Shown here: positions 9,521-46,093 of the stretch, piece by piece | How positions within the stretch are numbered: position 1 is the first letter of the stretch | Layout: every line of letters begins with the position of its first letter | Source of the DNA: Lama glama | Taxonomy: Eukaryota | Direction of reading: 5' to 3' | NCBI GenBank assembly: GCA_028534125.1 | Contig: CM052816.1 | Coordinates: 51,090,001-51,154,000 of the forward strand | DNA length: 64,000 nt | The notes under the pieces: generated by a model | The model's input: the letters and a program-made list of their open reading frames with translations, nothing else | Databases searched by the model: none | Told to the model about the DNA's origin: nothing | Position numbers and translations under genes: made by a program

Positions 9521-9544
9521 AGGTATTTGTAGCATTTTGAAGCC

Positions 9545-9900: not shown

Positions 9901-9988
9901 CTATGTATTAAATACTTCGTTGATAATAACAGGAAGCTGTTACACAGTCTAAAATGTATAAATTGAGAAATCGTCTAGCATATTATTT

Positions 9989-14052: not shown

Positions 14053-14056
14053 GACC

Positions 14057-16555: not shown

Positions 16556-16569
16556 GTCTTAGGGATTCT

Positions 16570-16732: not shown

Positions 16733-16737
16733 CTAGA

Positions 16738-17050
16738 ACAGCACTGTTCAACAGAAATAACATAACAGCTAAATATGTAATTGTAAATTGTCTAGTAGCC
16801 ACATTAAAAGAACTGAAAATAAACAGGTGAAATTAGTTTTAATAATCTATTTTATTTAACCTAATATATCTAAAATATTATTTCAAACATAAGTATTTTT
16901 TTAATTATTAATATTTTACCTTCCTTTTCTGCCCTAAGTCTGAAACCTGATGTATAATTTACACTTATACATATCTCAATTCAGACTAACCAAAATTTCA
17001 AGTGCTCAGTAACCACATGTGGCTAGGGGCCACTGTACTGAACAGTGCAA
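16738..17050. mobile_element. MER33-like hAT-Charlie element
   Basis: Inverted ends gcactgttca / tgaacagtgc; internal tctagtagccacatt and ccacatgtggctag. Confidence 0.7.
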
Positions 17051-17544
17051 ATAAAGAATATCTCCTCCAGCTGCTCACAGTCTCCTATGCTAGCAGAAGT
17101 AGTATCTGATCACCCTGCTCCTCACACTCCTGATCAGGAGGAGGTGAGAGCTCAAGCCCATGATGATCTTGGACTGTAATCAAAATGGTTCTGTGAACAC
17201 TCTGAAACTATATTAATCCCTTAGTGTTTATCACATAAAACTCTTTTTTGGAGGTATGCTTCAGTTATATTTTCAGGCACACACACATATACAAAATTTT
17301 TTATTTAAATCAAGTATCATTTCAATATATTTTATGACTTGATGGTCTTAAATTTTTAATATAGTATTCCTTCTGCTGTTGAAATTTTCTCTCACTTGAA
17401 TAAGAATATTTAAGGCAGAATAATTAGTAGCTAGTAGGTTTCACACATGTATTTTAGAATAGAAGTCACACTTAAAATGTGATTGTCTGAGAACAGCTCA
17501 TCTTGTGACTTCGGAGGAGAAAAGCAATGACAAAAAATGCTAAT

Positions 17545-18010
17545 ATGATAGCTTGCAGGCTGCAAAGCACAGGGTATCACCTGCCTGGAATTGTACTTGC
17601 CTGCTCAGATGGCTGAAGGGTCTGTGTCCAAAACCATGAAGGTCTAAGATTTTAACCAACTTGTAAGCTAACGAGTTAGCCTGCCATGGTTTCATGGATG
17701 CTTCCAGAAGACAATACTCATGGACTGGAGACAAAGGACTTAGTTTATTATTCACCACATAGCAAGCACTACGAGCATCAGTCCACTTGTGTCACCTCCC
17801 CTAAAGCAATATGGGTGGGCCCAGATGGATGCTTGCACACACAGTGGATTTCATTTCAGGAGAGGGACCCTGAGTTTCCAAGACTATAAACAAACTTTCC
17901 CTTTGCTAAAGAGGAGGGCACTATTTCTACCTTTCTAGGCTATTGGCTATAGAAACATCCTAAAGATATTCCAGAACAAAGAGCAGTTAGTGACTTACAA
18001 GATAAACAGA
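17545..18010. mobile_element. ERV LTR-like fragment
   Basis: gagacaaaggacttagtttattattcac and ccagatggatgcttgcacac resemble old LTR text; family uncertain. Confidence 0.45.
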
Positions 18011-18369
18011 AAATGTAGAAGAGCATGAAAAATACCCTCTTAAAATTTTCCATGAGAGAACAGGAAGTTGTACATCCATGCCACCTTCTTTTCAACTGAA
18101 AATATTTTGGATTTGCTTCATCTTCTGATTTACTATACATTACTAAATGAAATGCTACCTGAAAATTTGAATATCAAAAATCTATCTTCCCATAATCATA
18201 TATGGCCATATGGAATTGAGTTCTTATGGGAAAAAAATGGATCTACATTAATTCTAATATTTACCTTAAGAAGCATCTGGCACATGTCAGATCACAGTCT
18301 CTATTCATCCAAGTGCTCTCAGACTGAAAATGACATTAGTCAAATATTCAAATTAATTACAGCAGTCTT

Positions 18370-18810
18370 TGCACACTGATTCAAATTCCAAATCCATGCA
18401 CCTCTTACAAAGCCTGCATGACCTGGCCCTTGCTGGTCTCTCTCAACTCATTTATGGCCGCCCTTCCCCACACCATGCTCCAGCACACTGGCTTGCACCC
18501 AGCTTCTCAACACCCTCCACTGCCAAGCTTTTTTGCACCTCAGTGACTCTGCACATGTTGTTCCCTCTGTGGGGATCACCTCATACCCCTTTGGCTCTCC
18601 CTGCCTTCTGTTCACTCTCATTATAACACACACCACAGTTTGTACTGAGGTATTTACTTTCTTGTTACTTATTTATGGTGCATTTCCTCACCAGAAGGTC
18701 TGCTCCATGAGGGCAGGGACAGTGTCTAATTAACTCAAGTACACCTAGAGCCCAAGATGCTGCTGGTCAAAGTCAGTGCTAAATAAAATGTACAGAATAA
18801 TGAATAAACT
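18370..18810. mobile_element. L2 3' fragment
   Basis: ctgcatgacctggccct...ctccatgagggcagggac...gtgctaaataaaatg. Confidence 0.65.
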
Positions 18811-19029
18811 TTTCAAAAAAGTCACATAATTAATTCCCACTTCATGTCACATGGTTGTGACTCCCAGGGCCTGAATATTTAGGCAACTGTAACCAGAAAA
18901 TCAACTAATTCAAGTATTTCATTGAATTCAGTAGCTTGAAAATGCAAATGGCCAAAAACCCGTTCTATCAGTTTACTAGCAAATTATCATAATATGTATG
19001 CACTTCTTGCTCCTTGTGGAGGAGTATGA

Positions 19030-19552
19030 CACAATCTGACTGGGCTATGAGGAGCCCAGATATTTGGATAAACATTATTCTGGGTATGTCTCTCAGGCAG
19101 TTTCTGAATGAGATGAACATCTGAATCGGTAGACTGAGTAAATCAGATTGCCCTTTCCAATGTTAGTGGTCCTCATCCAAACCACTGAAATTCCAAATAG
19201 AACAAAAAGGTGGAATGTGGGAGAGTAACAGCTCAGTGGTAGAGCACATGCTTAGCATGCACGAGGTCCTGGGTTTAATCCCCAGTACCTTCACTGACCA
19301 AAAAAAAAGGCAGAGTAAGGGAGATTTCACTTTCTCTACCTGTCTTGGAGCAAGGATATCAGTCTTCCTGCCTTCAGACTCTATAACTGAAACTATTACA
19401 CCCTCTCTTCTGGGTCTCCAGCTTGCTGACTGCAGATTTTGGAACTTCTCAGCCTCTATAACTGCATGAGCCAATTTCTTAATAAATCATATATTCATAT
19501 GCATATGAACCATATTCATATTGGTTTTCTCTGGAATATCCAGACTAATACA
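19030..19552 (+). mobile_element. MLT2-type ERVL LTR (contains a SINE insertion)
   Basis: cccagatatttggataaacattattctgggt...tagactgagtaaatcagattgccct...ccagcttgctgactgcagat...gactaataca. Confidence 0.8.
19217..19308 (+). mobile_element. tRNA(Ala)-derived SINE, camelid Vic-1-like, short form
   Basis: A box agctcagtggtagagc, anticodon-arm-like ttagcat, B-box-like gggtttaatccc, A-tail; sits inside MLT2. Confidence 0.8.
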
Positions 19553-22299
19553 GACTCTTTATCAAGTTCAGAGCCTAATTGCTCCCATGATTTCTACCAA
19601 TTTTCATCAAATTAACTTCTCAGTTGATTAGAATCAGGTTAGTAAATGAAATACTTTTAAATGCTTTGGATTTAAATGTTAATGTTTCTCACTTTAGATT
19701 CTCCATTGACTTTTTGGAACATGGATAAAATGTCAAATTAGTGGCACATGTTTTACATTCTCATTTTTCAAGCTAAACTGAAACAGGAGGCTTGCTCTTA
19801 CATAAGTCTGTCTATTAGACAAACATTGATTGTCATGTGCTAGATGCCAGGAATACACGGTAAAAAGATCTAGTTCTCGCCCCCAAGAAGCTCCCAGCCC
19901 AGCGACATGCAGAAATGTGAACACGTAATTGCTGGGGTAAACAATTTTGGGGGATGTTTCAATTAGCAAACCAGAGACCTTCTCTGAGATCAGCCCCACC
20001 TTCACTATAAGCAATGGCTGATTAGATGAGGCATAGAGAGAGGCTGCTATATAACAGAAAAGGAGACAAGAGATGAGTCATAACTCACTCTTGAAGAGTT
20101 GAAGCAGATTTCCAAGGGAAGAAAAGGCCTCCACTACTCAAAAATGCTTTCACCAGGCACCTGCAGAGTCCCCACCTCAACAGAGAAAGGAATCAGAGTT
20201 TTAATTCAGTAAAATAAAACTCATATTGAGGACATGTGCCATTTGATGTTGCCCTATAGTTTAGGCCACCATTTTTATAAGAGCAAAGTCGATTCTCTGA
20301 ATAAAAATTTAATGTTTTCGATCAGAGAAAAAATTACCTCTGTCCTTCATGAAGCTATATAAACCTAGAACCCTTCACTTCTTTTCTTCCTCCCTTCCTT
20401 TTTCTCATTCCTTCTTTTTCTCTCTTGTTCTTTTTTCTTTCAATTTATGGGAAAAAATACTGTTTTACTTTACAGTCTTTTAAGCAATAAAGCCTTAGTA
20501 ATATAAAATGCTCAAAATACTGCACATTTACTTTTATAGGAGTTTTATATTTATATATTGTAATAATTTACATATTATTACATTTAAACAATCTAGAAAT
20601 AATCCTGGTGAATCTTCATTTTACTGTGGAAAGCAAAGGCTGAGAGTGACACTGGCCATTCCCCATTACTAAGATTAACTAGTCCCCACTGAACTCAGAC
20701 AGCACAGATCTGACCCCACTACCAGATTCTTAAACCTCTCCAGGGAATGAGATTCTAAAGCTTAATGCTTCATTGAGTAACGAAAAATTTTTTTTCCTAG
20801 TAAGAAGAATTATCTTTCATTTCTTATAATTCAAAGATCCCTGTTGAAATAGAGACCAATTTTCTTTTGTTTGGTTCTCGGCCAAGTTAAAGAACACCTG
20901 GAGAATAACTTTTAATACGCAATTAACATAACTCCCTCCCAGGAACTTCACAAAGGGAATCAAAGAACATGTTAATTCCCCCTCGAACCTACGCAGAGGT
21001 TTAATTAAATAACACGATTTTAAAGATCAGGACTGTATATTAGTAAGATTATAGAGCAATACACATATTTCTTTAGTTCCACAGGATAGATATGAGAAGA
21101 AATAATCACTACACCAAAAAGTAGCTAGAATGAAAGGAGAAGAAATATCATTCATTTTGGATAAAGCAAAAGTTGTGTTTAATAATTTAATCAGGTAAAT
21201 GAAGCACTCAGCATTCATCACTAGTAATTATACAAAGCATGTAAGCATTGATTTTACTGCTTCTTCTTTCCCATTTAAACCTATTATTTTAACTTGTCAC
21301 ATTTCCATAGCAACTAATACCTCAATTTTTATAGGTAAAGCACTAGGAATAACTTCTAACCATTCTAAATGCTCCAGTATCAACTATCAACATTGTTAAA
21401 ATCCTTGGCCATTCTTCCCCAAAGTTAACTTCTCTCCCATACAGTACAAAGAATCAGCATCACCCTTGACCTAAATCTCCTTATCAACTGATCTAATTCA
21501 TGAAGATCAATTTTTCTTCTTAGTTGGGGGATGAGGGGGTGTCTCCAAGAGAAGTCAAGTAATAATACCCTTCTGCCCCACCTGAATGCTAAATCAACTG
21601 AGAAATAACCACAAGGGGTAAGACAAGCAGAGGCCCAAATACCACTTTTATGCCTATGAAAGGCCAGGGTGGAGGACAGAATTCAGTGCAGGAGCAAAAT
21701 GGATTGTAAGCGAGCCCCTCTCCTCAGAAGACAGGCATGGCAGCCTGTCACAGCAGCACTGGGCTCTCCAAGAGAAGAGGGGCCTGCCCAGAAGAAACCT
21801 GAGAAAACATGTGCCCCACGGGCAGGCTGGACTCCAAAAAGGAAAAAAGGAAGAGATGAACATGCCTAGACTATTTTTCCAATATTTACCACAGACGCCA
21901 CCTTTACTTGCCTGTCATGGAATGAATAAATTGGCAGAGAAATAAGGAGTTACACTAATGTAACTCCTTCTACTTGGAAGGAAATACTAGGAAAGAGAAA
22001 AATGTGTTCTCCTTCCTCCCCCTACTCCCCTGTCTGGTATTTCAACAACTACCAAATGGTATTCTTTAGTGACAGTCTATCAGGTTTCATATACCTCTAG
22101 GAACCATGGATATCAACTTATAAGAATACTTTCATCTTAACAACTACGCTCCTTAGTTTGGTGTTTTACTGGCTAGAAAATCATTGCCCAACAATTTTAT
22201 GCCTTATTTACTTAATATTTATTTACAAATTTTTTTAAACTCCTTAAAAATCAAAATTCTGATAACAAATCTGGAAACTAACAAACATGTTCTGGTTAA

Positions 22300-25679: not shown

Positions 25680-27430
25680 CATCCTACCCTCTCTACTCAA
25701 ACCTCTTTTCCCTACTTTCTCTTCACTGATGCCCCTGTTTATTTCATTGAGTGAAGAGCAGTCAAAAGGGGTTCCACACTTTCCTATCAACAAATCTTCG
25801 AATATACTTGGAGTTGTACCCCTATATTCTGCCTTCTCTATTACTATAGATAAATTGTTACTATTCCTAAGGTCAATTCCTCCACTTGAGCACCCCTCTA
25901 GTCTACTCGAGGATTTGCTCATGTAATTATTCCTTTTCTCTATGAATTATCTATTTTTTCTTCTCTACTGAAACAATTCCATCAGCAATATAAAAATGCC
26001 ATAAAACATACCATCTTAAACAAACGCATCCTGACACAACCTCCTTTAGATTTGGTCCCTTTTCTCTAAACTTTATACGAAAACTCCTTGCAAAAAATGG
26101 TCTATAATTGCTGTCTCCACTTCCTTCTCTCCTATATTCTGTTGACTCCAGCCCAATCAGGCTTACATCTTCACCACTCCATGGGATCCCCTCTTGACAA
26201 AGTTACCAGTAACCTCCACATGGCCAAACCTAAAAGGTAATTTTCAGTCCTCATCTACTCCTTTTTTCACACTTGCTCACTTCCACTGTCTTCACTTCGC
26301 TTTGGTTAGAACATAGCACTGGCCATTCCTTTTCAGTCTATTTTACTTCACCTGCTGCTCTTTCAGTGTGCCCAGGCCTTAGGCCTCCAACCTTTCTGTG
26401 TTCTAGCTACAGTCATCCCCTAAATGATCTCACTCAGAGCCGTGGCTTTCAGTGTTATCTATTCACTGATGACTCTCTTGAACTCCATACCCACATATCT
26501 AACTACCCACCCCACATCCCTACCTGTATGTCTAACAAGCATCTCAAACTTAACACATCACTAACAGAACTCTAATTTCCCCTTCTAAATTTCTCCCCTC
26601 CCAGTATTTTCCACTCAGTAAATAAAACCACAAACTACCCAATTGCTCAGGTCAAAAATCATAATTAACTCCTCTTACACCCTACAGTCCTGAGCAAATC
26701 CTGTTGGCTCTACCATCAAACTGTGTATCTGATACAACCACTTTTTATCACCTAGACTGAGATTCTAAGCCATAATTATTTCCCAATTGAGCTATCACAA
26801 CATCCTCCCAACTGGCCTCAAGGATTCACCTTAGCTTTCTCCTCACAACAGCCAGAGTGAACATATGAAAATATAAATCCTATCTGTTGTTCCCCTGTTC
26901 AAAACTTTCCAAAGATTCAACCACAGGAAGAGGAAACAAAGCCTTTACCATGGCGGACAGGCTCTACATGTCCCTGTGTACCTCCCAGACCTCATCTAGT
27001 GCCACACTACTCCTCAAGCACTCAGCAGCCCCTCCCCTGACCCTTCAGCTCTTGGAAAGCGCCAGCCCATTCTACTTGTTCAGAATCCCTCTTCTTGGAA
27101 GGCTTTACCTGCACACTTATCTGAATGGCTCCCTCTGTTTAGGACCTCAGCTCAAATGTAATCTCCACAGAGATATCTTCTAACACAACCCTGTCCAGAC
27201 TAGCCACCCTCACCCCAAGTCACTATCACCTAATCAACTATTAAGTGTTCTCTATAGCACTTACCAGTAAGTAAAATCACCTTTTTTATTTTTAAATGCA
27301 CCTTTATTTCCTACCTTCTCACAACTAGAATATAAACTTAAGAGCAGAAAACTTCACGCTTAACTGTTGTATCTCCAATGCCTAAAGCCGTGCCCAGCAC
27401 AGGTAAGACATTTCTTTTAAAGTTTATGAA
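25680..27430. mobile_element. Long L2 remnant
   Basis: aagttaccagtaacctccac, tctaacaagcatctcaaacttaaca, caaatcctgttggctctacc, gtgcccagcacag. Confidence 0.75.
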
Positions 27431-28067
27431 TAAACCAATATCCCAGAAAACTTTCATATCTATTTCATTCTTCAGAGGTTTAAAGAGTTAATTAAATTAA
27501 TCACCCAAGGTCCCCTAACCAAAACAGCAACTTTAGGGTTTAAGGCCGGGTCTCTCACAAATGCTCAGGTTTTAAAATACTACTTCACCTTGCTTCACTA
27601 AATGGTTTTCAATTTACTATGCTTCTTGTGTGTAAGAGTTAACGCTTCGAAGTCTTATTTTCCAAACTATAACTGCAGGCCCACCTTCCATGACGCAGAC
27701 GCCGAGGGCCGATCCGCCCGCCCTCCGGCACCACGAAGCCCTCCCTCCGACTCCACGAAGCCCGCCCGGCGGGTCTGCCCAGAGCGCCTGCGCCGGGAGC
27801 GGATCTCGTGCAAAGGCTTCCGGGATTGGTAGTCCCGGTTCCTTCCATCAGCAGCATTCACACAAAAAGAAATAAACCATACTACAAATTAGATAGCTCT
27901 GGATTTCACACAAATTCATTAAGACGCAGATTCTGGAAAGTGGTGCAGCCTTGTCGCTTCCTACCGAGAGGCGCCGGCCGGACCAGGCGCTGCGCAGACA
28001 GCCGCACGGGTCCTCGGCTGGGCGGGGCTTGCTCGCGCGCGGTGGCTTGTGGCTCCTTCCTGGGCGA

Positions 28068-28080
28068 CTTCTCTCTTTCG
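28068..28080 (+). promoter_or_regulatory. RPS23: TCT initiator / 5'TOP pyrimidine tract
   Basis: cttctctctttcg about 30 nt upstream of the ATG, typical of ribosomal protein gene start sites. Confidence 0.85.
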
Positions 28081-28103
28081 CTCAGGCTCGTGGCGCCGGC
28101 AGG

Positions 28104-28107
28104 ATGG
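28104..28107 (+). CDS. RPS23: 40S ribosomal protein S23 (uS12), exon 1 coding part
   Basis: ggcaggATGG|gtgagc. Confidence 0.95.
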
Positions 28108-28570
28108 GTGAGCTGGCCCTGGCCGGGCTGAGGGGGCTGGGGTGGAACTGCGGGGTTTCGGGGACTGGCGGACAGATAGGAGCAGAGCCGTGAGGGAGAG
28201 CCGTACGGGAGAGCCGTACCGGGGACTGACGAGAGGGCCAGGGAGCGCCACTGCCGCAGGCACATGGCCCGGCGGGAAGGGGCCCATGCGGCGCAGAGGC
28301 CGTGGAGCCGGAGTTACTGAGGGACCGGGAGGGTAGGTGCGGGGGCGACGCTTCTCCTGAGCGTTGGCGCGGGGCTTCGTTCCGTTGGGAAGACACAGCT
28401 GTCCGGGCGCTTGTGTCCACGTCTTAGTTTGTTCAAGGGGAACTTGGAGGTTCGGACCCTGGGCCGAGATGTGATGCCAGAGCCTACTGGCCTATAGTCC
28501 AGGTGAGACTAGTGTCTGAGATGTTAGAATACGGTTGGGTGTTTTCACTGGGGAACTAAGGTGATTTTGA

Positions 28571-28738
<168 letters not shown>

Positions 28739-29396
28739 TGAGTTATAAGTCCTCTGCTGCTTCCTTCAGTGTTTTAGTGGTTAACTCGAGATAAATGCGC
28801 TTGAAGAGGTTTAATGTAAATTCTAGGTCTTTGTGTAGCCACGTTTGTTGGAAAATTGGTAACCATGAGGGCTAGGGTTAGATAAGCCCCAATGGTTTTT
28901 CAATTTTTCGCATTAGTTTGGAAGGGATTGGGATGGCGTTGGAGGGGAGAAAGTAACAATAATGAAATAAGGAACATTATGAGACCTTAATATGTGTGGA
29001 AACTGTTCTGAGCAGTTTGTACCCATCAAATACTTCATATTTGCAGTCAGATCTTTCCACTTGAGAAAACTAACATAAAGAAGTTTCTTCAGTGATGTTA
29101 TCCAGCAAAGATTGAGCCACGTGAACTTGGCAGTACTCAACTCTTTTTAAGATTTTCAAAATGATAATTTCATGTGTCCCCGTCCAATTTAGTGGCAGTC
29201 AGGATTTGAATCCAGGTTTTCTAGCTTTAGTTCTTGGTTCATATTTTACAACTATAAGGAGGCCAGGAGTTTCCCCTATTGTCCTAATTAGTTTCATTAG
29301 TTTCATTCTGCGGAAGAACTTGGTTGAAGTTTAGCAATTTAGGAATGGGTTGAAAAGGTAGGAATACTACTATTTAATAAGTTTTATGCTTAATGA

Positions 29397-29594
<198 letters not shown>

Positions 29595-29708
29595 TAGCTT
29601 CTGTTTCTGGAGTGGTGTGTCTCCCCCCCCCCCCCAATTTATAGGATGAGTGGGTATTTTTAGTGATTGCCACTTACACCAGAAGTAAACTGTTGGTTTT
29701 TATTCCAG

Positions 29709-29855
29709 GAAAATGATGAAGTTCTGGTTGCTGGATTTGGTCGTAAAGGTCATGCTGTTGGTGACATTCCTGGAGTCCGCTTTAAGGTGGTCAAAGTAGC
29801 CAATGTCTCTCTTTTGGCTTTATACAAAGGCAAGAAGGAAAGACCAAGATCATAA
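29709..29855 (+). CDS. RPS23: RPS23 exon 4 coding part (147 nt including stop)
   Basis: attccag|GAAAATGAT...AGATCATAA encodes [48 protein letters not shown]. Total CDS 4+160+121+147 = 432 nt = 143 aa plus stop. Confidence 0.98.
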
Positions 29856-29880
29856 GTTTTGATGGTGAAAGCACAATAGT

Positions 29881-29886
29881 AATAAA
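29881..29886 (+). terminator. RPS23: RPS23 polyadenylation signal
   Basis: AATAAA 25 nt after the stop, followed by a GT/T-rich downstream element (tctgtgtcttatttttgtt). Confidence 0.9.
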
Positions 29887-31609
29887 TTTTCATATGCCAA
29901 AAATACATTCTGTGTCTTATTTTTGTTACCATGGAGATGCACTGTATGCTTTACCAATTTTAGGAGATTGGGAAAACAGTTCAGAATTTTCTAAAGTGGG
30001 ATTGGTAAGTTTTTTCCCTTCTCCATGGAGTAAACAAAACTATGGGTAAAATATGGAATAGCTAAATGTATAGTATTCCTGTGTAGAGGGTCTCAAACTC
30101 AGCTTCTAGTGGGTATCATCTTGGGAACGCTGGGCAATGTACATTCTTGGATCCATTTAGGGACCCAGTATGATACATAGGGTGCTCAAGTTGCTCCCTG
30201 CTCTGGTGGTTTTCAGTTAGCTCAAGGTCAGGGCCCATGTTTTAAGTATGTATATGATAGCAAAACTTAAGCATTACACAATTGAGTTAATGGACATGTA
30301 TGCCTGGCAAATTAAGGCAAGAGGAGTAAGGGAGATGAGTTATGGAAAGTTAATCTAGGTGCAAATCTTTGTCCAGAGCTTATCAGTAACCTAGATTTTG
30401 ACCTTGAGGTTTACTTCAAGGCACACAAAGTAATGGAAGTGACTAGGTAGAAATGGTCCAGATAGTTTGAATAGTTCTGATGATTGAAGCTGGGTGTTGG
30501 TTGGGTACACAGGGGCCCCGTGCCACAAATAGTTGTTTCAAAATTTCCTTAGGGAAAAATGGTAAAAATCAATCTAAAATCTTAAGTTAGTGAGGAACTG
30601 CTTTTGGCAGCATTAATAGGTATGAGTTAATTTGCTCTGATCAGTCTAACGTTGTGTCATGTTAGAATCTTTGGAAGATAGAACTTTTTGGCTTCCCATC
30701 TTCTAGAAGATAAAGACCAGAATTTGATCTTGACATAGGAGACCTTGTGTGTTGTGTGTTCCCTGGCTGCTCCTAAAAGCTGGCCTCACTTGCTCAAACC
30801 TGCATTCCCCATCCAGCTTCAGGTCCCCCCCTGGCATGTCACCTGCTGTCCTACCTTAAACCAGTGATCCCACATTCACACTTGTGCTTATACTTGTCAC
30901 AAAAAAGGTAGAGACAGATTGGCTCTTTTTTTTTAATTGAAATATATTTGACATTAAGATACACATGTTAACTAGGTACATTTGTATGTGGTAATTAGAC
31001 ATAGTTTGTCTTTCCATCCCAACGCTTCCTGGTGCTTGTAGTTGGAGTTACTGATTAAGCCGTTTCCAAAGGCTGACCAGATGCTTCCAGATGGTCATAA
31101 CTGACCCTCCACATGACCCACCAGAAGAGGCTGCATGGGGATACGTGGTTTCACCCCAGGCTCAGACATGGGGAGGGCAGCGGCCTGAGGATTAAAAGCA
31201 GGGACAGGAAACTGCCAGTGGGTGGGGTGGACCTACAGGGTGTGCACGAGGGAGGAGGGCCAGAGACCACATCCATTCTGGGCATGTCTAACTCCTGCTG
31301 CAAAGGATGAATTTTCCTGTAAGGAGTTAAGGCATCCTGCGATGAAGGCTGGCTTGCACTTGTCTCCTTGGTACACCCAGGATGCCCCCGTCCTGTGACA
31401 ACTGACTGACCCATAAATCTACCACAGACGCCTCAGACCCAAAAGTGTTCAAGCCTGATTTAAGTTCCCTCAGCCTTCCCACCATCCCAACCCCTACTCC
31501 CTCACACTTTGTGACCAGAGCCCCTTCATTTTTGGATCCATCTCAAAGTTCTGCCTGGCGCTGCTATAGAGGAAGAAAAAATGAGGCACTCACCATGGCT
31601 GCAAAATTT

Positions 31610-33220
31610 AAGCAAATTCCCAGCAGCTCTTTTTGGTAGAAGTAGAAAAGTTAATTCTAAAATTACGGAAAGGCAAAAGGACTAGAATAGCCAGTACAAT
31701 ACTGAAAATGAAGAATAAAGGTAGAGGAATCACAAACTGGTTGTAAGATAATTTGTAGCTACAGTAAACAAAATGGTGTATTGGAGGGACAGACACAGAT
31801 CAATAAAATAGGAAAATAGACTCCATAAATATACAGGTATGGCCAACTGACTTGACATACAAAAGCAGTTCAACGGAAGACAGTTTTTTCAATAAATTGT
31901 GTGGACTTCCATTTGCAAAAAAATGGACTTCAATCTAAATTTCACACATTATACAAAAACTAACTCAATGGATAATATATCTGAATATAAAAAGTAAAGC
32001 TGTAAAAACTAGAAGAAAACAACAGCTTCATGGCAGGGTCAGGTGAAGAATTCTAAGACATCACACTTAAAAGCACATTCCACACACACACAAAGGATAA
32101 AGTGGACTTAAAATAAAAATCTTTTGCTCTGTGAGATATCTTGTCAAGAAGATGAAAAAACAGACTACAGACTGGGAGAAAATATTTGCAAATTATATAT
32201 CCAATAAAAGACTTGTATCCAAAATATATGAAGAACTCCCTAATCTCAAAACTAAGAAAACAATCCTATTACAAAATGGGCGAATGAATAAATACTTCAC
32301 TGAAGAGATGACAAGCACATGAAAAGATGATTAACATCATTAGCCATTAGAAAAATGTAAGTTAAAATCATAAGGAGATGATACCAGTATACACCTACCT
32401 AACGACTAAAATTTAAAATACTGACAATACCAAGCACTGGTGAGACTGGAGCAACTAGATTGTTGGTGGGACTAAGAAATGGTACAGTCACTCTGGCAAA
32501 GTTTGACAGTTCCTTAGAGAGTTAACATACACTTAAGATCCAGCAATTGCACTCCTGGGTAGTTATCATACCAAAATGAAATGTCTGCCCACACAAAATC
32601 CTGTACACACGTGTTCATGGCAACTTTATTTATGATAGTCAAGAACTAGAAGCAACCTAAATGTCTTTCAGTGGGCAAACAGGTAAACTGTGGTTACATC
32701 CGTAAGTGAAATGCTACTCAGTCATAAAAGACACTTGTTGCAAGCAACAACTTTGATGTTTCTTAGTGGTATGCTAAGCACAAAAAGACAAACTGAAAAG
32801 GTTACATAGGTCCTGTAACATTTTATTTATATAAAATTCTTGAAAAAAATTACAGCAACGGAGAAGAGATGGGTAGTTGCTATGGACGAAGGATGGTAGT
32901 CGAACTACAAAAGGGTAGCACCAGGGGGTGTCTTTGTGGTGTTGAGCAGTTCTGTCCTGATTGTGGTAACGTTTACACAAATCAATACTTGTGATGGAAT
33001 TTCAAAGTGCTGTATACCAAAAAGAGCATAAAAATTGAAATACAAGTAAATCTGTAGTTTAGTTAATAGTGTTATAAATGTCAATTGACTGGTTTTGAGA
33101 ATATACTCTGGTTATCAAATATGTTATCATTAAGGCAAGGTTGGGTGAAGTATACAAATGATAGTTTTTGCAATTTCTTGTGAGTCTTAAATTACTTGTT
33201 GATTAAAAGGTTTAAAAAAT
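31610..33220 (+). mobile_element. Old L1 ORF2 3' part and 3'UTR
   Basis: ORF fragment KKQTTDWEKIFANYISNKRLVSKIY is ORF2p; gatccagcaattgcactcctgggt. Confidence 0.85.
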
Positions 33221-33986
33221 TGTGAATGAGTAATTAATTTGTGTTACATCTTGTATTTGCCTAGCAAACCCCAAACAGATCAGAAATTGTTAGTGCAGAA
33301 AGAATCTGGAGATCATTTAGTCCTGTGGTTCCCAAATCGAGAACATCAGAATCCCTAAGGCATTTGTTAGATTATACAAGTACTCCTGATCTTCTGGGAA
33401 GCCATCTTTGTGGTATTTCTGGGAGAAATCTGTCTTTTCAATGAGCTCTAAGGCAGTCTTTATGTAGCCATCCCATTGATGGGGATACTCCTGCTCTTTT
33501 CCAGCCACCTCATTTTATAAACCAGAAGCCCAAAAAAGGTAGCTCTTCAGTATTTTTCAAATAATTTCCCCAAGTAATCAACACAGCTGAAACCAGAAGG
33601 AGTCCATCCTCTAAATTAAACCGTTCCTGTAGGAGACCCACCTCAGAGCAACATAGCAAACACTGCCTTACAGGCAGCTACTTAGCCTGATATGGTGTAA
33701 ATTTATGCTGGGTATTTAATAAGTTTTTGTTTTGCACTTTTTGAAGGGAAGGTATAACATGATTAGTAAATTTTCTGTATGTTTATATGGAAATGTTGAA
33801 ACATACAAGTTAGTGATGTTCTGCAAAAAACTTTAAACTATATTAGGAAAATACACAATGCCTCAAATATATGGTTTTTTTCCCTTTTATTTTTTGATAC
33901 AGCTGAGAGACATGGTTCTAATTTGACAGCTATGCAAATTTGAATGTGTATCTTTGTATATATGTATTTTCTATGTTTCATTCCAG

Positions 33987-34125
33987 GTAAATGTCTGGTG
34001 GCAGGATTTGGTTATAATGATCATGCTGTAGATAACATTCCTGGAGTCTGTTTCAAGGTCGACAGAGTAGCTAACATTTCTTTATTGGTTTTACACAAAG
34101 TTGAGAAAGGAGACCAAGATCATAA
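33987..34125 (+). pseudogene. Degenerate tandem duplicate of RPS23 exon 4
   Basis: [35 protein letters not shown] aligns with [35 protein letters not shown]. Retains the attccag acceptor and the agaccaagatcataa end; has a 7-nt and a 1-nt deletion. Confidence 0.92.
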
Positions 34126-35515
34126 ATTACCGTATTACACCACAATTTTCACTAATAGCTACTTGTATAATCTTTATTTTAACCTATAAAATCTGTTTAA
34201 ATGGATCATCCAAGTATTAACTTACATTTCTTACGATATTGTAGTTGGGAGATTGCCTTCATAGGTTGTACTAAGCATTTCTAATTTCTAGCACAATTTC
34301 TATCTGTATTATTTGGAAAAGTTATGGCATGTTTATTAGTGTGTGAGGAAAAGAAGTGGATTTTTAAAGCTTATTGTCATGGTAATGTCACCACAGGAGT
34401 TTTAGAGCAAAGTATTAAAACATTCAACAACTGAATGTTTTTAAGTGTAAGTTGTCTCATGGGGAAAATCATTTTTAGAGTGACACATTTGAAGGGACCT
34501 AAGAGTGACAACCCATATTTCCAAATATGCACACACACACACAGTCGCCACCGCATTCAGACTTTAGTATGTGGTGTGTATCTTCAAAATGATGGAGCTA
34601 CTCACATACAGCACTTAGAACTCGAGCCAGATGTGATGAACGTCATCATTGCTTCCCAGAGGACCTGAAGCTTTCAAATGGCAACTCTGATGCTAAGGAG
34701 TTTCTCCTGTAGGAGGGAGAAGAGGAAATCATGACCCCAGATCACCTCTTCAGACTTTCCAGTCTGAGAAGTGTCAGCTTCCTCCGCAGGTCCTTACTTG
34801 TGGTAATAAGTTATTGACATAAATTATCTAATCTATTCATAGTGTAGGAGTTTTTGTTTGTGTTTGAAGTCTAGCTTTCTAAATCTCATTCACTGTAGTT
34901 AATTAGAAGTAGAACAAGGGGTCATGTTACTTGGTTGGGTTAAAAGGGAAGGGCATGCTGAGCATACCCACATTTTCAAATAAGTCTAGATGTGGATAAA
35001 TATATTATACTGCTTTCTTACCTCTTACAACCAGCAAATGTTTAAATCTGAACAATAGTGGGCAGAGTGAGCCACATTTTAAATAACTTTTTATGTCAAT
35101 CACAGCTGAGAACAGTGGAGGGAAATGTTACTTGTTGAAACAGGTTTTGTCTATTAATACCTGTTTTGGAAACAATGACAAGAAATAGATTGTTTTGTCA
35201 TATCTTTTCCCCCAACAGCTTTGAGCATTTATTTATCTGGTTTATGAGAAGACATATATATTTTTTCTATGTAGCTTGACAGCTTCAGGTATTCTGTTTT
35301 TGCGTGTGTTTGCAGATAAGTTGGACCACTTTGCCCCTCCTTCAGTTCTTGATATATTCCAAGTATTTTCTTCAAATTTCAGTGCTAGTATATGCAATAG
35401 TTGACTTCCGTTCACTCTGTATTTTACACATTTTCTTATGTTTATAATTAGGTAGTTTTTCCCTGTCACCATATCCCTCTTTCTCCTGCCCATGACATAA
35501 CATAGCGGGATAGCG

Positions 35516-35517
<2 letters not shown>

Positions 35518-35559
<42 letters not shown>
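35518..35559. repeat. (GT)n microsatellite, about 21 units
   Basis: Pure gtgtgt run. Confidence 0.95.
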
Positions 35560-35562
<3 letters not shown>

Positions 35563-37759
35563 CTCCTGAAACTATGTAGAATTTTCTGATTTTTCTGTAA
35601 GCATACACACACATACACACATATTTTTCTGAAAAGGGGGTCTATACATTTTTCAGATTTTTGAAGGAGTTTCTGCCTAAGAAACCAGCTACTGTTTAAA
35701 TTTGTACAACAGTGAGCGGATTTAGTCACATATTACATAATTACTCAATTTAATCACACCTGAGAATGGTCGTGAGACGCTGCCTGTGGTTTGACAGCAT
35801 CTATGAAATGTCCTCAGCGTGGTGAGGATCTGTGGATGGGTAATCCAGGCTACAGAACCTGCAACTAGCACATTTCACATTCTGCTTTGATGGCACCAGC
35901 TGACCCAATAACAGAACAGGGGGCCATTTTAGAGAGAAGTTCCCCAATATCACTGGTAAATGCAGAATCAGAAAGACGTTACAAACCCCACCCTCAGAAG
36001 TAAAAGCAGAGGGCAAATCCCAAAGATACTTTAACACCTAAGTTTGGAGTAAAACTTAACAGAAAAGATCAAATAAAAAATGTTCAGCGTGCACCTGTAA
36101 AAACAAATGACATAATGTCTGTGTTTAAAAAAAAAACTAAGCAAATATAAAGTAAAAAACAAGGGTTAAATGAAGCAAATGTGGCAAAAATCCTGGTAGT
36201 TGCTGATTCCGACTTACAGGTATGTGAAGGTTCATTGTACAATCTTCTTTACTTGTGAGTCTGTATGAAATTTCCCATAATAATTTTTTTAAATTCATAC
36301 AAATCCTTATTGTTTAACTGCCATACTCTCTGGCTGTACAAACCAGTACATAGACAGTCAGCTCGCATGGGGCAAAGTGAAGATGTGGGGTAATCAAGTG
36401 TACAATAGAGAGGCTACAAACTAACCCTGGTCACACTGAGAAATATATACCACATTGGGAAGAAACAAAAATGAGAAGCCATGCAAATTGTAGCAAGACC
36501 AGTGGAGAAAATGATCAATAATAAAAGCACAGTAAAATAAAATTATTTTCAAAGATTTTAGGAAATGGTAGAACACAGACTGCTTTGGGGAATGCAAACT
36601 GGGATAGCCTTACTGGTGAACAATTGAGCAGCATGAATCAAAAATCTCAAGACATTCCATATCCTTTGACCTGTTTATTCCCTTAGTGAGGGTGTAACCC
36701 AAAGAAACAGGATGTAACTATTTCTGCACACATATCTTACTGTATTACATTTGGAAAGTTCTCTGAGGGAAGGGCTTTGTCTGTCCTACTGAACAGTATA
36801 TCCTCAGCACAGGTCTTGAACATTCAGGAAGTTAAGTGTCCAATGAATGCATGTTAAATAAACAGTGAAGAATTAGAAACAACCTAAAAGCCCTAAAACT
36901 ATTTGGTACGTTTTGATATAAAAGAAATAATAGCCATGCTCAGCCCTGAAGATCTGGCGTACATACGTAAATACCAACACACCAAAGGCTGTAGATTTAT
37001 TGAACTATGATTTCTTGTTAGCCTATCACAGCATACTTTGTTTAACTTCTGCCTAACAGTGATTTCTAGTTATTTGAAAAACTTCAAGGTAATCCAAGAA
37101 ATCACCACCTAGCCAGAGGCTTTATTTATTCTAATGTGAACTTCATCTGAACGTTGGAATACATTGCGTTTCGAGTTCATTTTTAATAATTTACCAAATG
37201 GGACTTGGTGACCTCTAAGATCACTTTAAGTTCTTACAGTCTAGAATTCAGAGTATTTGTAATAGGGCTCTTTTACCACTAGGTGTCGATATTGACAACA
37301 CAAAAAAAATTAAAGCAAGGGCTTGACATTACAGAACTGCTTTAAAGAACATTATCAAATTTAAGAATAAAATGTGAAATCACTTTTACAGACAAGCCCT
37401 ACAGAAATCCAGAGGGAGAGCTGTGAGAACCTATGTGCATATCGAAGTAGCCCAGTGCCATGGGCACAATAATAGTTAAGTACTTCCTATACCTTCTAGA
37501 ACAACCTTTAACAACTTACTGGTCAGCAGCATGAGAAGAGAATCAGAGATTCTTAGAATTGCAAGGGAGCTTATTTGTCCATTAGTTTTTAAATCTCTGA
37601 CTGCTCCCTGGAGCTAGAAATACACTTACATCACAACCTAGCACATGCGCACATACACACATCATAATACAGATTTTCTACGCATGTACTTGAAATTAAA
37701 GTTTCACAAAACAGTAATACCTTCACTATGTGCATTGCACTCCTTTCTATGTATCTCTG

Positions 37760-38630
37760 AAATAACAGAAAACATATATTGGTCTCTGCCCCAGGTTCCT
37801 GGCACAGAACTCCTAAAACCCTTGAAATTTCCTTAGTGATGAGATTATAAGGAGTATCTTTTGTTCCAATATTTGGTCTTTGACCCCAGTTCCTAACAGA
37901 ATTTCCTGGGTGATAGTAGTAGCTTTTGTTCTAATGAGGTGACTCTGGGCGGGCTCCTGAATAGCTTCAGGATGGGGGCTGGTCACCAGAAAGACCAAGC
38001 TCTGGATCAAAAGCTTGGAACTTTCAGCCCCATCCCTCATCATTGGGGAAGGGGAGCAGGGCTAGAATTGGAGCTAATGATTGATCATTTCTACATGATG
38101 AAGCCTCCATAAAAATTCCAAAAGTATGTGGTTCAGAGAGCTTCCAGATTGGTGAACACGTCTGCATTCCAGGAAGGTGGTGTACCCCACTTCCTTGGGG
38201 ACAGAAGTTCTTGCACTTGGGACCCTCCTGGACCCTGCCCTATGTAGCTCTTTATCCGTATCCTTGATCATATCCTTTATTATATAACAAACTGGTAAGC
38301 ATAAGTAAGTGTTTCCCTGAGTACTATGAACCATTCTAGCAAATTACTGAACCCAAGGTGGGGTTCATGGGAACCCCAATTTATGGCTGGTCAGTTAAAA
38401 ATACAGGTGACAACCTTGGACTTGCAACTGGTATCTTAAATGGGGCAGTCTTATGGATCTGATGCTAAAACTCCAAGTAGATAGTGTGAGAACTGAACTT
38501 AATTGTTGAACACCCAGCAGGTGTTGCAGACTTGTCTGATATATGGAAAACCCACAACACTTAGTGTCAGGCGTGTGGTGAGTATGACAGTATTGTGAGA
38601 GTAAAGGAGAAACAAATGGGATTTTTCCCC
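37760..38630 (+). mobile_element. MER21-like LTR
   Basis: ttggtctctgccccaggttcctggcacagaactcctaaaaccctt...atagcttcaggatgggggctggtcaccagaaagacc...gagagcttccagattggtgaacac. Confidence 0.8.
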
Positions 38631-41600
38631 AAACACATTCTATTTCATTAAAAAAGATAAATACTGGTCATAAACCAATAAATTGATTTTACTTGAATTA
38701 ATATCCCTTCTTCCACTTAATATATAGGAAACAGAGGCTCACAGAGGTGCAGTGACTCGCCCCAGGTAACACAGTAAACTGGGACTCAGGCTTTTCAGAC
38801 ACTGGCAGGTTTTGCTTTGGAAGGCCCTAGGCAAGAATAAAAAATTGTCCTTGGCCTACTCCCAGCCCTTTCTGCACTCCTGTACCTTCTAAAGCATGTG
38901 GGCCAGTATGTGTTGGTGAAAAAACCAAGAAAGTGTCTGTGATTAGTCACTTTAAAGATACAAGTTCTTTCTAAAATGCAAATGTGATCACTCTAACTGC
39001 TCTACTTGAATTCCCTCAGCGGCTCTTTGTGGTTTTCAGGCCAAATACTAATCCTCAGTGTAGCAATAAAGGCTCCCCAGACCTGGCTCTGGTCCTGATA
39101 GCCAGCCTCACTCTTTACCACTTCCGCATACACACCTTCAAGGTATCTGCTCCATTCCTGACCTGGCTAAATCCTAAGAGTTTCACTCCCTTCACATTCC
39201 TCTTCCGTGAACTTCCCCTGCTGCTTGCCTTCCGAACCTCTGCCACAGCACACATCCCACCGTCCCTGCATCTTCTTGTCCGTCTTCTCCACTGGACCTG
39301 GGCATCCTTATGAACCAGAGTCAGGGCTCTCTGTTCACTGCCACTGCCACTGCCACCAAGCCTAGAGCTCAGAAAAAGGGGGCACTCAGTAAGTATCCAC
39401 TGAAGTGCATATGTGCATATCCTTATTTTCAAGTTTTAATCCTAAAAAAAATCCAACTCACTGCAATATCAGCGCTCTGAGCTCTGTAAGAGCTGCTATT
39501 GGCAACACAGATGCCATTGCCTAATATCTTGAGAACATGAATAAAAACTGTATTTCGGGAGAAATGGATGCAAAAACCCACGACTGACTTTTTTTTCTAT
39601 TTCATTTTTTTTGGAGGGGGAGAGTAGCTTCATTTTTTAACCTCCAGCTTGTAAGCTAGCCTCTGGCCTTTCTAGTCACTCAGCGAACTGGCTCACACAC
39701 CCACTCCGGTCCCCAGACCAAGAAGCTTCCATGGATGACTTACAAGGGGCAGACAGCGACTCTTCCACGCATGCCACCTTATAACATACCCTCCAAAAAG
39801 TGGGTCAGTAATTTATTTACTCTCCATCAAATCCAGAGTGAAAAGGAGACAATTAAATGCTACTCTGCCTAAGTAAAGTGAGTATGAAGGAAGAGGTTCA
39901 CCAGGAGGGGCTGTGGGAGTCAGAGATGGCTTTGTAAAAGAGTGAGTCATGTAGACCAGGTTGAACCTTGGGGAGAGAGATGAGGAAGGAAGCATTTCCA
40001 GGTGGAAACCAGCCTGAGCAACAGTCAGATGGTCAGAGGAGGCTGTGGGCAGAAAAGACCTCGGGCCCACTCGCCTGGGGTGGAATTGGGCCTGAACTGA
40101 GGTGGGAGGGAGCAGGTACGCTCTGTCACAGGAGCAGGGCCGATTGTCCACTCTCCCCCAACTCCACACAGCACTGTTAGTTATGAAGTGCATTCAGACT
40201 CACATACCATTTTGATGTCTATGCCTTTGTAGGGTGAGTGGGGTTGATATTAGGAACTTTTAAAAACAGAAGTGATAACATACTAAAAGACATAAAGAAA
40301 ATCAGACAAAGATAGAGGCAAACCAGCCTCATACTCTAGCTCTCTAGACTTCTCCCTATTTCCCAGACCCAAGAATCGGGGTGGGCCTCATGAGTCGCGC
40401 GGCTGAACCTCCTCACTGTGCAGGCATGGAAACAGAGAACCAAAGAGGCGAAGCTGTTTTTCCAAAGTCACACGAGAGCAGAGTTTAGAAGACTGGCTGG
40501 TAGCAGCTTTAACCAGCTTTGTTTCTGACCGAAGGGGCTTCGCATTGTATTAGCAGGAGAGGAAACCCTGAGGAAAGATCCTCACGTTATAGAGAAAGAA
40601 CTGTTACTTTGACAAAACAAAATATTTTCTAATGTCTTATGACTGTTGGGAAAACAGTCTGTTATATAACTGCAGTCTTAAAAAATGGAAATTTTTATCA
40701 ACCAAAAATTAATTTTTTTAAGTGAAAAAATTCTCAAAAGGAATAGAGCTGTTTGAGGAGAGAGATCTATCTGGGGAGGGAGCTCTTCAGAACTTTTTTC
40801 TGCCACTGATGAATTTTTAGGTCTTTAGCAATCAGAAAAAAACCTTTTTCTTAACTTAAAAAAAAAAAGTTCTATCATTTTGGGCCACTACACACTGGCC
40901 CCAAAATGACAGGATTCTATCATTTCAAAATCTGTAAGCGAAGGATAACTAATATTTCCAGACGAGTACATCATCCAGATAATACATTATTACATTTTTT
41001 TTTATCCCGGAAATGACATGGCTTGAGAAATGACTTGCTGAGAAATCTGTGTTTACATTAGAGGAGTGGGGGGAAAAATCCCTTGCAGAAGTTGAAAAGA
41101 TGTTAAGTGGTAAATACCAAAATGCCCAGCAAGCATGTAGGCAGTCTCTCATCCCAGCATGAATACGTGCAGCTCAGCATTTTAAAATTTACTTTTAGCT
41201 TTTCTAGCAGTTTGAATTAACCCTTTCTCTACTTCTGCTCTCTGTGTGAGAGTTTAGCCCTTAACCCAGACACTGGCAGGGCTGTCACAGATGTCTGCAA
41301 TTTGCCCGCAGATAATCCTCTCATCCCCACTGCTTCCCCCAAGTGGGCCGCCTCGTGAGCAAACACCTCTTAGACTTTCTTACTATTCAGAGTCTTGGGG
41401 CGATGCCCAGACAACGTTAGGAAGTTAGGTCCAGCTTGCCGGAGCTGTGCACAGAACTGGAAAAGGCCTGTTGGGAGACCAAAACAATACACATAAATGC
41501 AGCTCGAAGGGTTTATCCAGACCAGAGCTTCTGTGAGAACATATGCATCAGAATCACCCCAGAGAAGCTGTTTCGGCCAGTGGCCCCAGTGTCTGAATTG

Positions 41601-42579
41601 TAAGAGTCTCAGGGGACTCTAGGGTACATCCCTCACTGACAGACACTAATCCAGATGCTCTAAAGAGGCAACTACATTTTTCTCTTAGTTTCAGACCCTA
41701 GCAAGTTAAAATGAAAAGCAAGCAACTCTAAACTGAAAATTCTTCCTATTAGAGTCACCTTAATACCTTACTGGCTGTTAAACTTACTGGCTACTGACAG
41801 AATGAGCAACTAAAAATCAAATACAAGAAAGTGAGCATTTAATGAATATTTGTATAATACTTTACGATATTTTCTCTCTCACTAAGCATCTCATGTGCTT
41901 CTCACAGCAACACTATGAGATAGCTTCTTATTCTCTTATTAAAGATGAAAAGCATGAGTCTCAGAGGCATGAAAGAATGACCTGGAGATGCCCTGATGAC
42001 GTCAGTATTTCTATGACCCAGTTAAATTCATTTTTGCTATTTATAGTGATTTGTGTCTTTCCAGTGTTTCTTCTAAACATGCAGCGTATCAGCTGCTGCA
42101 GACATTTGCTTCCAAGGGCAAACATCCATGTCAAAACGTCGGTGAGCTGAAATCTCGCACAATATTGGTCCTGTTAAAACCAGGGCTGGCCACGTAAACT
42201 TCCAGCATTCTTCTAAGCTCTTTGGCTCAAAAAAAGAATCAGAAGAACAAGAATAAACCAAAAGCCAAGAGAATAAAAGAAGGTTAACTGAGCAGTAAAG
42301 ACTTGTTTCAAGAACATCAATTCTAAAATAAAACCGCCCAGGCCTGTAGTTGGGTGAGGATTATTGTAGCAAAATCAAATGTTTCCTAAATAATTAGGAG
42401 CTGGTTGGTTGGAAAACTAAACAAAGAAGTCAGTGTCCAGCCAGCTAAAGATGAAAGCAGACTTAATACATGGCGGGGCCAGCAGGGATGACACCTCTAA
42501 GTGCAGCAGAGACACCTGGATCTTTGTGACAGCAACACATGCAGCACAGGCTTCTCTTTTCACCTTGTCCACTGACATT

Positions 42580-42679
42580 TCATTCATCCTGAGAGGCTGC
42601 TCCGGCATAACTAAGAGGCACATTCAGCCCAACAGCTGGCCCTACGATGCTCAGCCATGATGTGATGTAGTTGACGTTC
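42580..42679 (-). CDS. ATG10: ATG10 (E2-like ATG12-conjugating enzyme), last coding exon
   Basis: ttgtttcccag|GAACGTC encodes (R)NVNYITSWLSIVGPAVGLNVPLSYAGAASQDE*. The exon probably extends to a donor after 42564 (CAAG|gtgaaa). Confidence 0.95.
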
Positions 42680-42949
42680 CTGGGAAACAAATGAACACAG
42701 TTTCGGTTGTAGTTGGAGGAGAGTAGAAAGTCAGTTACTAGCAATCGTAGAAATGAGGCTTTCTTCCAAGATGTGTGCCCACCACCTGGGATCCCACCAT
42801 TTCCGAATGCCAGCCCACTGCTTGATGGGGACTCGAGGACCAAAGCGACTGACAATCCTTCACTAAAGTTGTTGAAGGGAAGGTCCAGGCTCTGGGCTCC
42901 TGAATTCCATTGATGATTTTAATGTGACACAACTTACAGCATTTGCTAA

Positions 42950-43215
42950 GGTAGTAGAGTGCAGTGGTTAAGCATACGGCTCTGAGGCAAAATGGCCTGG
43001 GTTCAAATCCTAGTTCTACCGCTTAACTAGCTGTGTGACCTTGGCCAAGTCATTTAAACCCTCTGTGCTTTAGCATCCTTTTCTGTATATCAGGTAAAAT
43101 AATGGTACTTAGCTCACAGGGGTATTATAAAAATCCAGTGCATTAATATAGCCGAAATACTTAGACCAGTGCCTAGCACACCATACAAAATCAATATGTG
43201 TTAGCTATTATTATT
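42950..43215 (+). mobile_element. MIR SINE, near full length, in ATG10 intron
   Basis: gcagtggttaagcatacggctctg...ctgggttcaaatcc...ctgtgtgaccttggccaagt...tgttagctattattatt. Confidence 0.85.
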
Positions 43216-43321
43216 ATTACAAAGAATATTTCTTTTTTAGCTTAGCTTTTAGAATCACATAAAAAGATTTACACTTTTAAAATAAGAGTGAAAGCCAATA
43301 TATCTTGATGGTGTTTCTTAC

Positions 43322-43419
43322 CTATTGATTTTTCGAGAATTCTTTACCACAGGAGTCATGAATTCATTTGTCTTGCAAGGATGAAGTACAAAAAAGGGTT
43401 GTCCAAGTATCGGATGCTC
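43322..43419 (-). CDS. ATG10: ATG10 penultimate coding exon with catalytic HPC motif (98 nt)
   Basis: gttacag|GAGCATCCG...ATCAATAG|gtaaga encodes [32 protein letters not shown](R). Confidence 0.97.
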
Positions 43420-43977
43420 CTGTAACGATCAGAGTTGGCCCAGGATTGCCAGCATGAGTTTACTTTGAAAAAATTAAAATACTTAATATGTTTTTACTCC
43501 TTTAAAATAAAGGTCTGTTTTCAATTTTAAGGTATTAAATTAAGATACAGCTAGATTCCTATTTTGGAATAAAATTAATAACCCAAACATGAGAAGTTGG
43601 TGAGAAGAAACTATTTATTGATAAAGTAGTGCAGTCAGGTGTAGTACGGCGCTCAATACACACTGCAGATACATCTGATCAGTCCCTTGAACGCTTCTTT
43701 AGCTAGTACTTCCTTTGGCCTATAATTATTCTTGTTTTTCCTCCAGGATGTCTATGAAATTTAGGAGCCTGACCATCTGAACAAAGTATCCCACTCTCCT
43801 CTTTGTCAATGGCAAGGGGACCAAAATCACTCACATACCTTTTTAACATAAATTTTGCCAACATGTTGATTGTTTCAGGCCTGTGTCCAGGGCCAATGGG
43901 CACATGTCCAGTGAGTGGATGGGGTAGAGGGTGGGGTGGGAAAGGGGCATGGCTGGCACTATTTAAATTGTACTGCT

Positions 43978-45936: not shown

Positions 45937-46093
45937 CAGGGAAGGTATAGCTCAGTGGTAGAGCACAGGCTTAGCATGCACAAGGTCCTGGAGTCAATCC
46001 CTAGTACCTCCATTAAAATAAATAAATTAAATAAAAACCTAATTACCCCCCCAAAAAAGATTGATTAAAAAATAAATTTTTAAATAAATCAAT
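45937..46093 (+). mobile_element. tRNA(Ala)-derived SINE, camelid Vic-1-like, with TSD
   Basis: ggtatagctcagtggtagagcac...cttagcatgcacaaggtcctgg...cctaattaccccccc plus AT-rich tail; TSD aaaaggctaaatttag (45921-45936) / aaaaagctaaatttag (46094-46109). Confidence 0.88.

Follow-up and report, generated by a model that had tools for sequence, protein, structure and literature searches.

The ribosomal protein gene RPS23 in the analysed window (the whole stretch of 64,000 nucleotides of Lama glama DNA) is followed on the same strand by a second sequence resembling its last exon, which raises the question of what this sequence is, how it came to lie there and whether RPS23 transcripts make any use of it. 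A preliminary description had proposed a duplicate arisen at the DNA level, with an intact splice acceptor, which read-through transcripts could employ as an alternative or poison last exon, neutral decay being named as another account. The features involved are collected in Table 1.

Table 1. Features of the RPS23 locus and its surroundings, by position in the window
Feature	Position	Strand	Basis or remark
RPS23 exon 1, coding part (ATG and 1 nt)	28104–28107	+	the four exons join into an intact protein
RPS23 exon 2	28578–28737	+	four-exon join
RPS23 exon 3	29456–29576	+	phase-0 donor, the one that would join the copy
RPS23 intron 3 (132 nt)	29577–29708	+	last 11–14 nt common to the copy; A of the branch-point motif at –33
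RPS23 exon 4, coding part to stop (parent of the copy)	29709–29855	+	BLAST, join and alignment
AATAAA of RPS23	29881–29886	+	sequence
Stretch between gene and copy	31590–33210	+	six AATAAA and one ATTAAA; borders approximate
81-codon ATG-to-stop frame through acceptor and copy	33944–34189	+	weak S12/S23 match (E 3.3e-4), below the family cut-off
Copied acceptor	33973–33986	+	10 of 11 nt as in intron 3; 14 of 17 pyrimidines; 55 nt without another AG
Decayed copy of RPS23 exon 4	33987–34125	+	BLAST and alignment; old stop 34123–34125, shifted-frame stop ends at 34031
Probable 3′ UTR remnant	34126–34151	+	old poly(A) signal likely at about 34139–34144, from orthologue codons; pairwise alignment not significant
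Variant poly(A) hexamers after the copy (TATAAA 34185, ATTAAA 34414)	34185–34419	+	sequence
Two exons of convergent neighbour, ATG10-type	42583–43428	–	Autophagy_act_C domain; human synteny

RPS23 and the copy of its last exon

RPS23 itself is an intact four-exon gene, the coding exons of which join into a protein of 143 amino acids. Its convergent neighbour has exons at 43321–43428 and 42583–42708, matching Autophagy_act_C with E-values of 6.4e-10 and 0.034, and was named ATG10 on account of this domain and of the match to the human locus, given as ATG10-RPS23-ATP6AP1L in PMC11438911. In a human association study (PMC10897204), RPS23 is also one of the genes linked to polyadenylation, a report unrelated to the copy. 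Several poly(A) hexamers were observed on the reverse strand between the ATG10-type exons and the copy, and RNA from the ATG10 strand could cover the copy in antisense orientation. The stretch between gene and copy resembles an old sense-strand L1 3′ fragment, with approximate borders; a Pfam search in 13 frames returned no L1-related family to confirm this.

Other repeats were also recorded around the gene. Three tRNA-like matches were found in the window with Rfam (19221–19293, 42950–43021 and 45941–46012), none of them near the copy; they are probably SINE heads, and the last is taken by us to resemble the camelid vic-1 SINE, a family of this kind being described from camels. G+C-rich short tandem repeats with periods of 22 and 13 were seen upstream of RPS23 (27716–27767) and in intron 1 (28184–28219), respectively, and a poly-C run in intron 3 (29623–29636) and, further along than the copy, a (GT)21 repeat (35518–35559) are possible length markers.

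When the region 26501–31500 was compared with the window by BLAST, a single non-self match was returned, linking 29698–29858 to 33976–34128 (E 2.9e-26), which bears out the placing of a same-strand exon 4 copy about 4.3 kb downstream; the exact offset is 4278 nt. With gaps placed optimally, 110 of the 139 aligned nucleotides are identical. The 29 substitutions (20 transitions and 9 transversions) amount to 12 synonymous and 17 non-synonymous differences over 44 codons, close to the counts of about 28, 13 and 15 made earlier by hand, and yield a dN of 0.19 (95% interval 0.11–0.32) and a dS of 0.52 (0.25–1.05).

The reading frame of the copy is broken in two places. The 7-nt deletion after the seventh exon base had been recognized, together with its consequence: in a conceptual join to 33987, exon 3 would contribute to a product of 95 amino acids plus a 14-residue tail, 109 in all, so that a last coding exon made of the copy is out of frame with exon 3 after the seventh nucleotide. 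A 1-nt deletion near 34110–34112, which shifts the frame a second time, had been overlooked. The copy is real and old, a partial duplicate of RPS23 exon 4 with two frameshifts.

Acceptor, borders and origin of the copy

The origin of the copy can be read from the bases that precede it. Of these 11 nt, 10 agree with the end of intron 3 and 6 with the end of exon 3, and the likelihood ratio for an intron-3 over an exon-3 origin is about 570–20,000 for divergences from 0.38 down to 0.2, the corresponding ratio over background being about 3,000–21,000. Only 6 of the 127,978 11-mers on both strands, both copies included, match as well. The acceptor had thus been rightly described as kept, and the GTAAAT reported directly after it is present. 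It was also observed that the end of exon 3 (29566–29576) resembles the end of intron 3 (29698–29708), maybe by chance, a likeness that weakens arguments made by eye about the acceptor of the copy.

Ribosomal protein retrocopies are common, and the sequence could in principle be an ordinary 5′-truncated processed retrocopy with a coincidental acceptor match, in line with the 6 of 11 upstream bases that the end of exon 3 itself provides. The likelihood ratios in favour of intron 3 and the rarity of equally good 11-mers stand against this, as does the position beside the parent gene. No A-tail follows the copy, each of the 11 bins of 25 nt in 34126–34400 holding 6–10 A, and no exon 3 homology was detected upstream of it (p 0.76; simulated power 0.8–1.0). 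No direct repeat tightly flanks the copy either, the best pairs (8–15 nt) being distant, and a target-site duplication was for this reason not accepted, although age could have erased one. Because of the intron-type bases upstream and the lack of both an A-tail and a tight direct repeat, an ordinary retrocopy is extremely improbable, and this explanation is already largely refuted. The earlier assignment to a genomic duplicate is supported.

A larger tandem duplication was likewise rejected. Beyond the copy, homology was at chance level in the interior of intron 3, in exon 3 and in 100, 300 and 1000 nt downstream (five of five tests, p 0.25–0.93), with a simulated power, under a simple model, of 0.8–1.0 up to 0.6 substitutions per site. 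Given this power, the copied unit thus measured about 150–190 nt, or its flanks were lost later.

The right border of this unit depends on the region after the old stop. The preliminary description had proposed that a 10-nt deletion removed the AATAAA there, a claim now doubtful: alignments anchored after the stop were no better than random local DNA at all three lengths (p 0.20–0.36). The deletion was rejected as a candidate, decay in place fitting the codons of the orthologues described below better. At 34139–34147, these orthologues read T-K-I, D-K-F and H-N-I (codons ACN AAR ATH, GAY AAR TTY and CAY AAY ATH), against T-T-I in the window (ACC ACA ATT), which suggests that the 'cacaat' used to anchor the alignment may in part be a recent change, and that a NAYAAR-type hexamer at about 34139–34144 may have been lost to substitutions, the spacer behind the stop being shorter; the back-translation on which this reading depends is ambiguous. 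The statement that no poly(A) signal accompanies the copy went too far as well, in view of the variant hexamers downstream (Table 1).

A right border apparently near the poly(A) signal, as in RNA-derived copies, invites a further account, in which an RPS23 RNA that retained intron 3 served as template of the insertion, truncated 11–14 nt into the intron and with its other end close to the poly(A) site. The presence of an acceptor but of no more of the intron would also be accounted for in this way. However, an A-tail is lacking in the window and also in the orthologue residues at that place, no tight direct repeat is present, and dispersed retroposition would be very unlikely to place a copy on the strand of its parent and 4.3 kb away from it. 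We regard an RNA template as improbable.

Orthologues, age and rate of change

The history of the copy was followed in related sequences, with the 81-codon frame at 33944–34189 as bait, which finds only copies with a long surviving frame and is biased towards shared deletions and high identity. Of 136 residues, 11 in P0001 and 10 in P0002, two Logan proteins, differ from the window frame; in simulation this corresponds to a DNA divergence of about 3%. A phmmer search with P0001 gave 32 matches, of which 11 were examined and three (P0003, P0004 and P0006, with identities of 62, 71 and 53%) were kept as orthologues for matching the flanks as well as the exon part; P0035, a cluster mate that also matches the flanks, was added. 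The other matches examined were seven RPS23 or RPS23-like pieces without the flanks and one unrelated repeat protein. Overall, the orthologue-like copies have 53–91% amino acid identity, the same flanks and the same deletions, and likely come from mammalian assemblies; their frames all read unspliced through the acceptor region. A profile search for orthologues, with 45 candidates, returned only its own three inputs, the exon 4 acceptor pattern had no match in metagenome contigs, and a metagenome alignment scan gave 173 pattern matches, none of them confirmed.

In three other database proteins (P0008, P0011 and P0012), intron-like sequence continues into RPS23 exon 4, with decay in two of the three; these proteins may represent additional exon 4 copies made at the DNA level, or gene fragments, of other animals.

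Both deletions are found in the orthologues. The 7-nt deletion is present in all five scorable sequences (P0001, P0002, P0003, P0006 and P0035), P0004 having a 6-residue gap at that place, and the 1-nt deletion in all four (P0001–P0004), with P0006 and P0035 shifting frame or ending earlier. The gap in P0004, facing 33987–34004 beside the acceptor, fits an 18-nt deletion between two AG-G repeats.

The substitutions tell of a similar history. Compared with RPS23, 13–16 of 37–38 residues have changed in each of four copies, about 0.2 substitutions per site, which is not what purifying selection on a coding exon would leave; all four differ from RPS23 at eight positions, at four of them with the same residue, and P0003 and P0004 are about 0.15–0.19 from the window copy. 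About half of the decay and both frameshifts would, on these translated comparisons, be older than the splits from those lineages. The shared decay and shared deletions indicate that the copy is old and was broken before these lineages separated. Its age may be put at many tens of millions of years, perhaps near the placental radiation, the conversion into years using general substitution rates.

The ancestral frame of the copy contains no stop and forms part of the 81-codon frame, which raises the matter of a small encoded protein. The frame does run from ATG to stop, and similar frames are open in P0001–P0004. The bait, however, selects open frames, the probability of an open frame at that divergence is 0.25–0.36, and the starts differ, P0006 is frameshifted and the residues change at the rate of the flanks. 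Under neutral decay, moreover, a stop-free ancestral frame over 38 codons has a probability of 0.57–0.67. The frame is likely not a gene, and a protein encoded by it has next to no probability.

Constraint was also assessed by setting the exon-derived part of the orthologues against its flanks. Identical residues numbered 42 of 47 in the exon-derived part and 32 of 34 in the flanks for P0001, 31 of 47 and 20 of 34 for P0003, and 30 of 43 and 19 of 26 for P0004 (Fisher p 0.64–1.0), and over the longer frame 5 of 47 exon-derived residues differed against 6 of 89 in the flanks (p 0.51). Conservation of the exon-derived codons above the flanks was not found in the three comparisons of translations, which are small tests, blind to constraint at the nucleotide level; the A of the acceptor AG falls at a wobble position of the frame, making conservation of the AG unreadable from proteins. 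Neutral decay, named earlier as the alternative account, is supported by this equal pace of change in the orthologues.

The explanation that we hold to be quite probable, judging from the sequences compared, is that of a decayed same-strand copy of the intron 3 acceptor and exon 4, which would stem from a small, local duplication of DNA in the early history of mammals, have evolved neutrally since and have had no selected role in the regulation of RPS23. A segment of about 150–190 nt, comprising the last 11–14 nt of intron 3 and reaching roughly to the poly(A) signal, would have been copied a few kb downstream; template switching and templated break repair are possible mechanisms. Both deletions, of 7 nt and 1 nt, would have been fixed before the lineages of P0003, P0004 and P0006 split off, and later substitutions would have accumulated no faster or slower than in the flanks. 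Almost every RPS23 transcript would lose the 132-nt intron 3 and have its end at 29881, and for this reason the distal acceptor would be used at noise level at most.

One property does not follow from a random small duplication: the limits of the homology coincide almost perfectly with the functional borders of the exon. The copy may be dead today and still have been a working exon 4 once, either as an alternative last exon selected for a time or as the original distal exon 4, displaced by a copy 132 nt behind exon 3. The confinement of homology to the acceptor, the coding exon and probably the poly(A) signal, despite high simulated power, speaks for it, together with the 55-nt AG-free, T-rich approach to the acceptor and a dS interval that reaches 1.05. 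Against it, the flanks were maybe never copied, or deleted later, and the AG-free zone was remarked on only in hindsight and has a chance rate of 3–5%, AG being missing from the 41 nt that lie past the shared acceptor bases, as at only 3–5% of nearby positions. Moreover, the dN and dS fit one neutral copy and silent change in the gene: a dS of 0.52 is close to twice the dN of 0.19 plus noise, so that no additional period of purifying selection is needed. A formerly working exon is rather unlikely. This alternative and the RNA-templated insertion concern the origin of the copy, a separate question from neutral or regulated status, and our estimates for the two questions are not to be added together.

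Possible use in splicing and comparison with known systems

The proposal of an autoregulatory last exon starts from an acceptor with an intact YAG and many pyrimidines (Table 1). Among the YAG sites of 29900–42000, 21, that of the copy included, have at least 13 pyrimidines in 17 positions. A yTnAy branch-point motif is absent between –18 and –44 of the copied acceptor; introns 1–3 each have one, at –31, –26 and –33. Downstream of the copy, seven GTRAG motifs occur up to 36200. Between the AATAAA of RPS23 and the copy, the sense strand holds six AATAAA and three ATTAAA, and a transcript using the copy would have to bypass an exon located 132 nt from the donor and run past these nine hexamers as well as the gene's own AATAAA. 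The six AATAAA of 31590–33210 could provide possible ends for read-through RPS23 RNA.

Expression data were consulted through sequence words. Among the 24 runs listed for 33600–34800, 20 hold words of this stretch. The 14 contig sets labelled as RNA (five on record as such, from two studies, and nine guessed) hold 0.45–0.49 of the words, a share of about 0.46 that fits a relative diverged by about 2.5% with the whole unspliced stretch or half of the stretch in the same species; six unlabelled sets of genome size hold 0.92–0.96. Such a share does not separate RPS23 RNA from DNA carry-over or ATG10-strand RNA, nor does it reveal junctions.

In the regulated reading, exon 4 would be left out of read-through RPS23 transcripts and exon 3 joined to the copy instead, the unproductive 109-residue product serving as a feedback valve. 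The acceptor, the variant poly(A) hexamers downstream, the long persistence of the copy and the precedents in RPS9, RPL3, RPL7A, RPL10A, RPL12 and RPS26 treated below favour it. However, the copy is not conserved above its flanks, unlike the highly conserved unproductive exons of RPS9; a canonical branch point is lacking, and nine further sense hexamers would have to be passed. No junction follows a stop in a last exon, and such a stop is not a classical trigger of NMD; nor would the stop ending at 34031 be one if the copy were the last exon. The shifted-frame tail occurs in no database protein of 37–119 amino acids, a weak negative of low power. These points turn the preliminary proposal of a poison exon into a highly improbable one, and its combination with an earlier working life, in which the copy would be what is left of a formerly functional last exon (maybe the exon 4 that the gene first had) and its acceptor would have been kept as a regulated escape for read-through transcripts, is barely credible to us.

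What the copy means depends on which reading holds. As a neutral fossil it is of little importance: it adds one to the decayed exon duplicates, could serve as a dated marker common to mammalian lineages and is a small trap for annotation or read mapping through 'RPS23-like' frames. Regulated splicing to it, if true, would add a gene absent from the feedback-splicing list in the main text of the autoregulation review; among the cases in the consulted parts of that review, none involves an exon whose duplicate lies past the poly(A) site. If outgroups showed an exon swap, an essential gene would have replaced its last exon with a nearer copy, which would matter. Our literature search, covering listings and abstracts, mostly outside subscription journals, and texts without supplements, found no paper describing an RPS23 exon 4 duplicate; the orthologues with shared flanks and deletions are new here.

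Three known systems offer themselves for comparison. Processed ribosomal protein pseudogenes have in common with the copy a decayed RPS23 coding sequence with frameshifts, but the copy differs in the intron-type bases upstream, the lack of an A-tail, its single exon and its place beside the parent.

Feedback splicing has been described for RPS9/uS4, RPL3, RPL7A, RPL10A, RPL12 and RPS26, and the unproductive exons of RPS9 coincide with conserved, structured sequence, as far as the consulted parts of PMC8047918 and PMC3315480 report; the main text of the review does not name RPS23/uS12. The likeness lies in a ribosomal protein gene with a potential alternative splice that brings an early stop. 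The known events, as presented there, involve intronic cassette exons or alternative sites, those of RPS9 feeding NMD, whereas the copy is located past the poly(A) site, is no better conserved than its flanks and would form a last exon.

The third comparison is with tandem and partial exon duplicates. Unannotated tandem exon duplicates are described as abundant, UTRs and terminal exons included, and some of them as expressed, in the main text of PMC9013439, in which RPS23 does not occur, and partial gene duplicates are presented as common and often dead ends in PMC3449122, which names RPS23 twice. Like the duplicates covered by these sources, the copy is a same-strand homologue within or just beyond its parent gene, with 76–79% identity and the acceptor kept; it differs from them in the 4.1 kb of unrelated DNA that lie between, in a frame broken twice and in being seen at the sequence level only.
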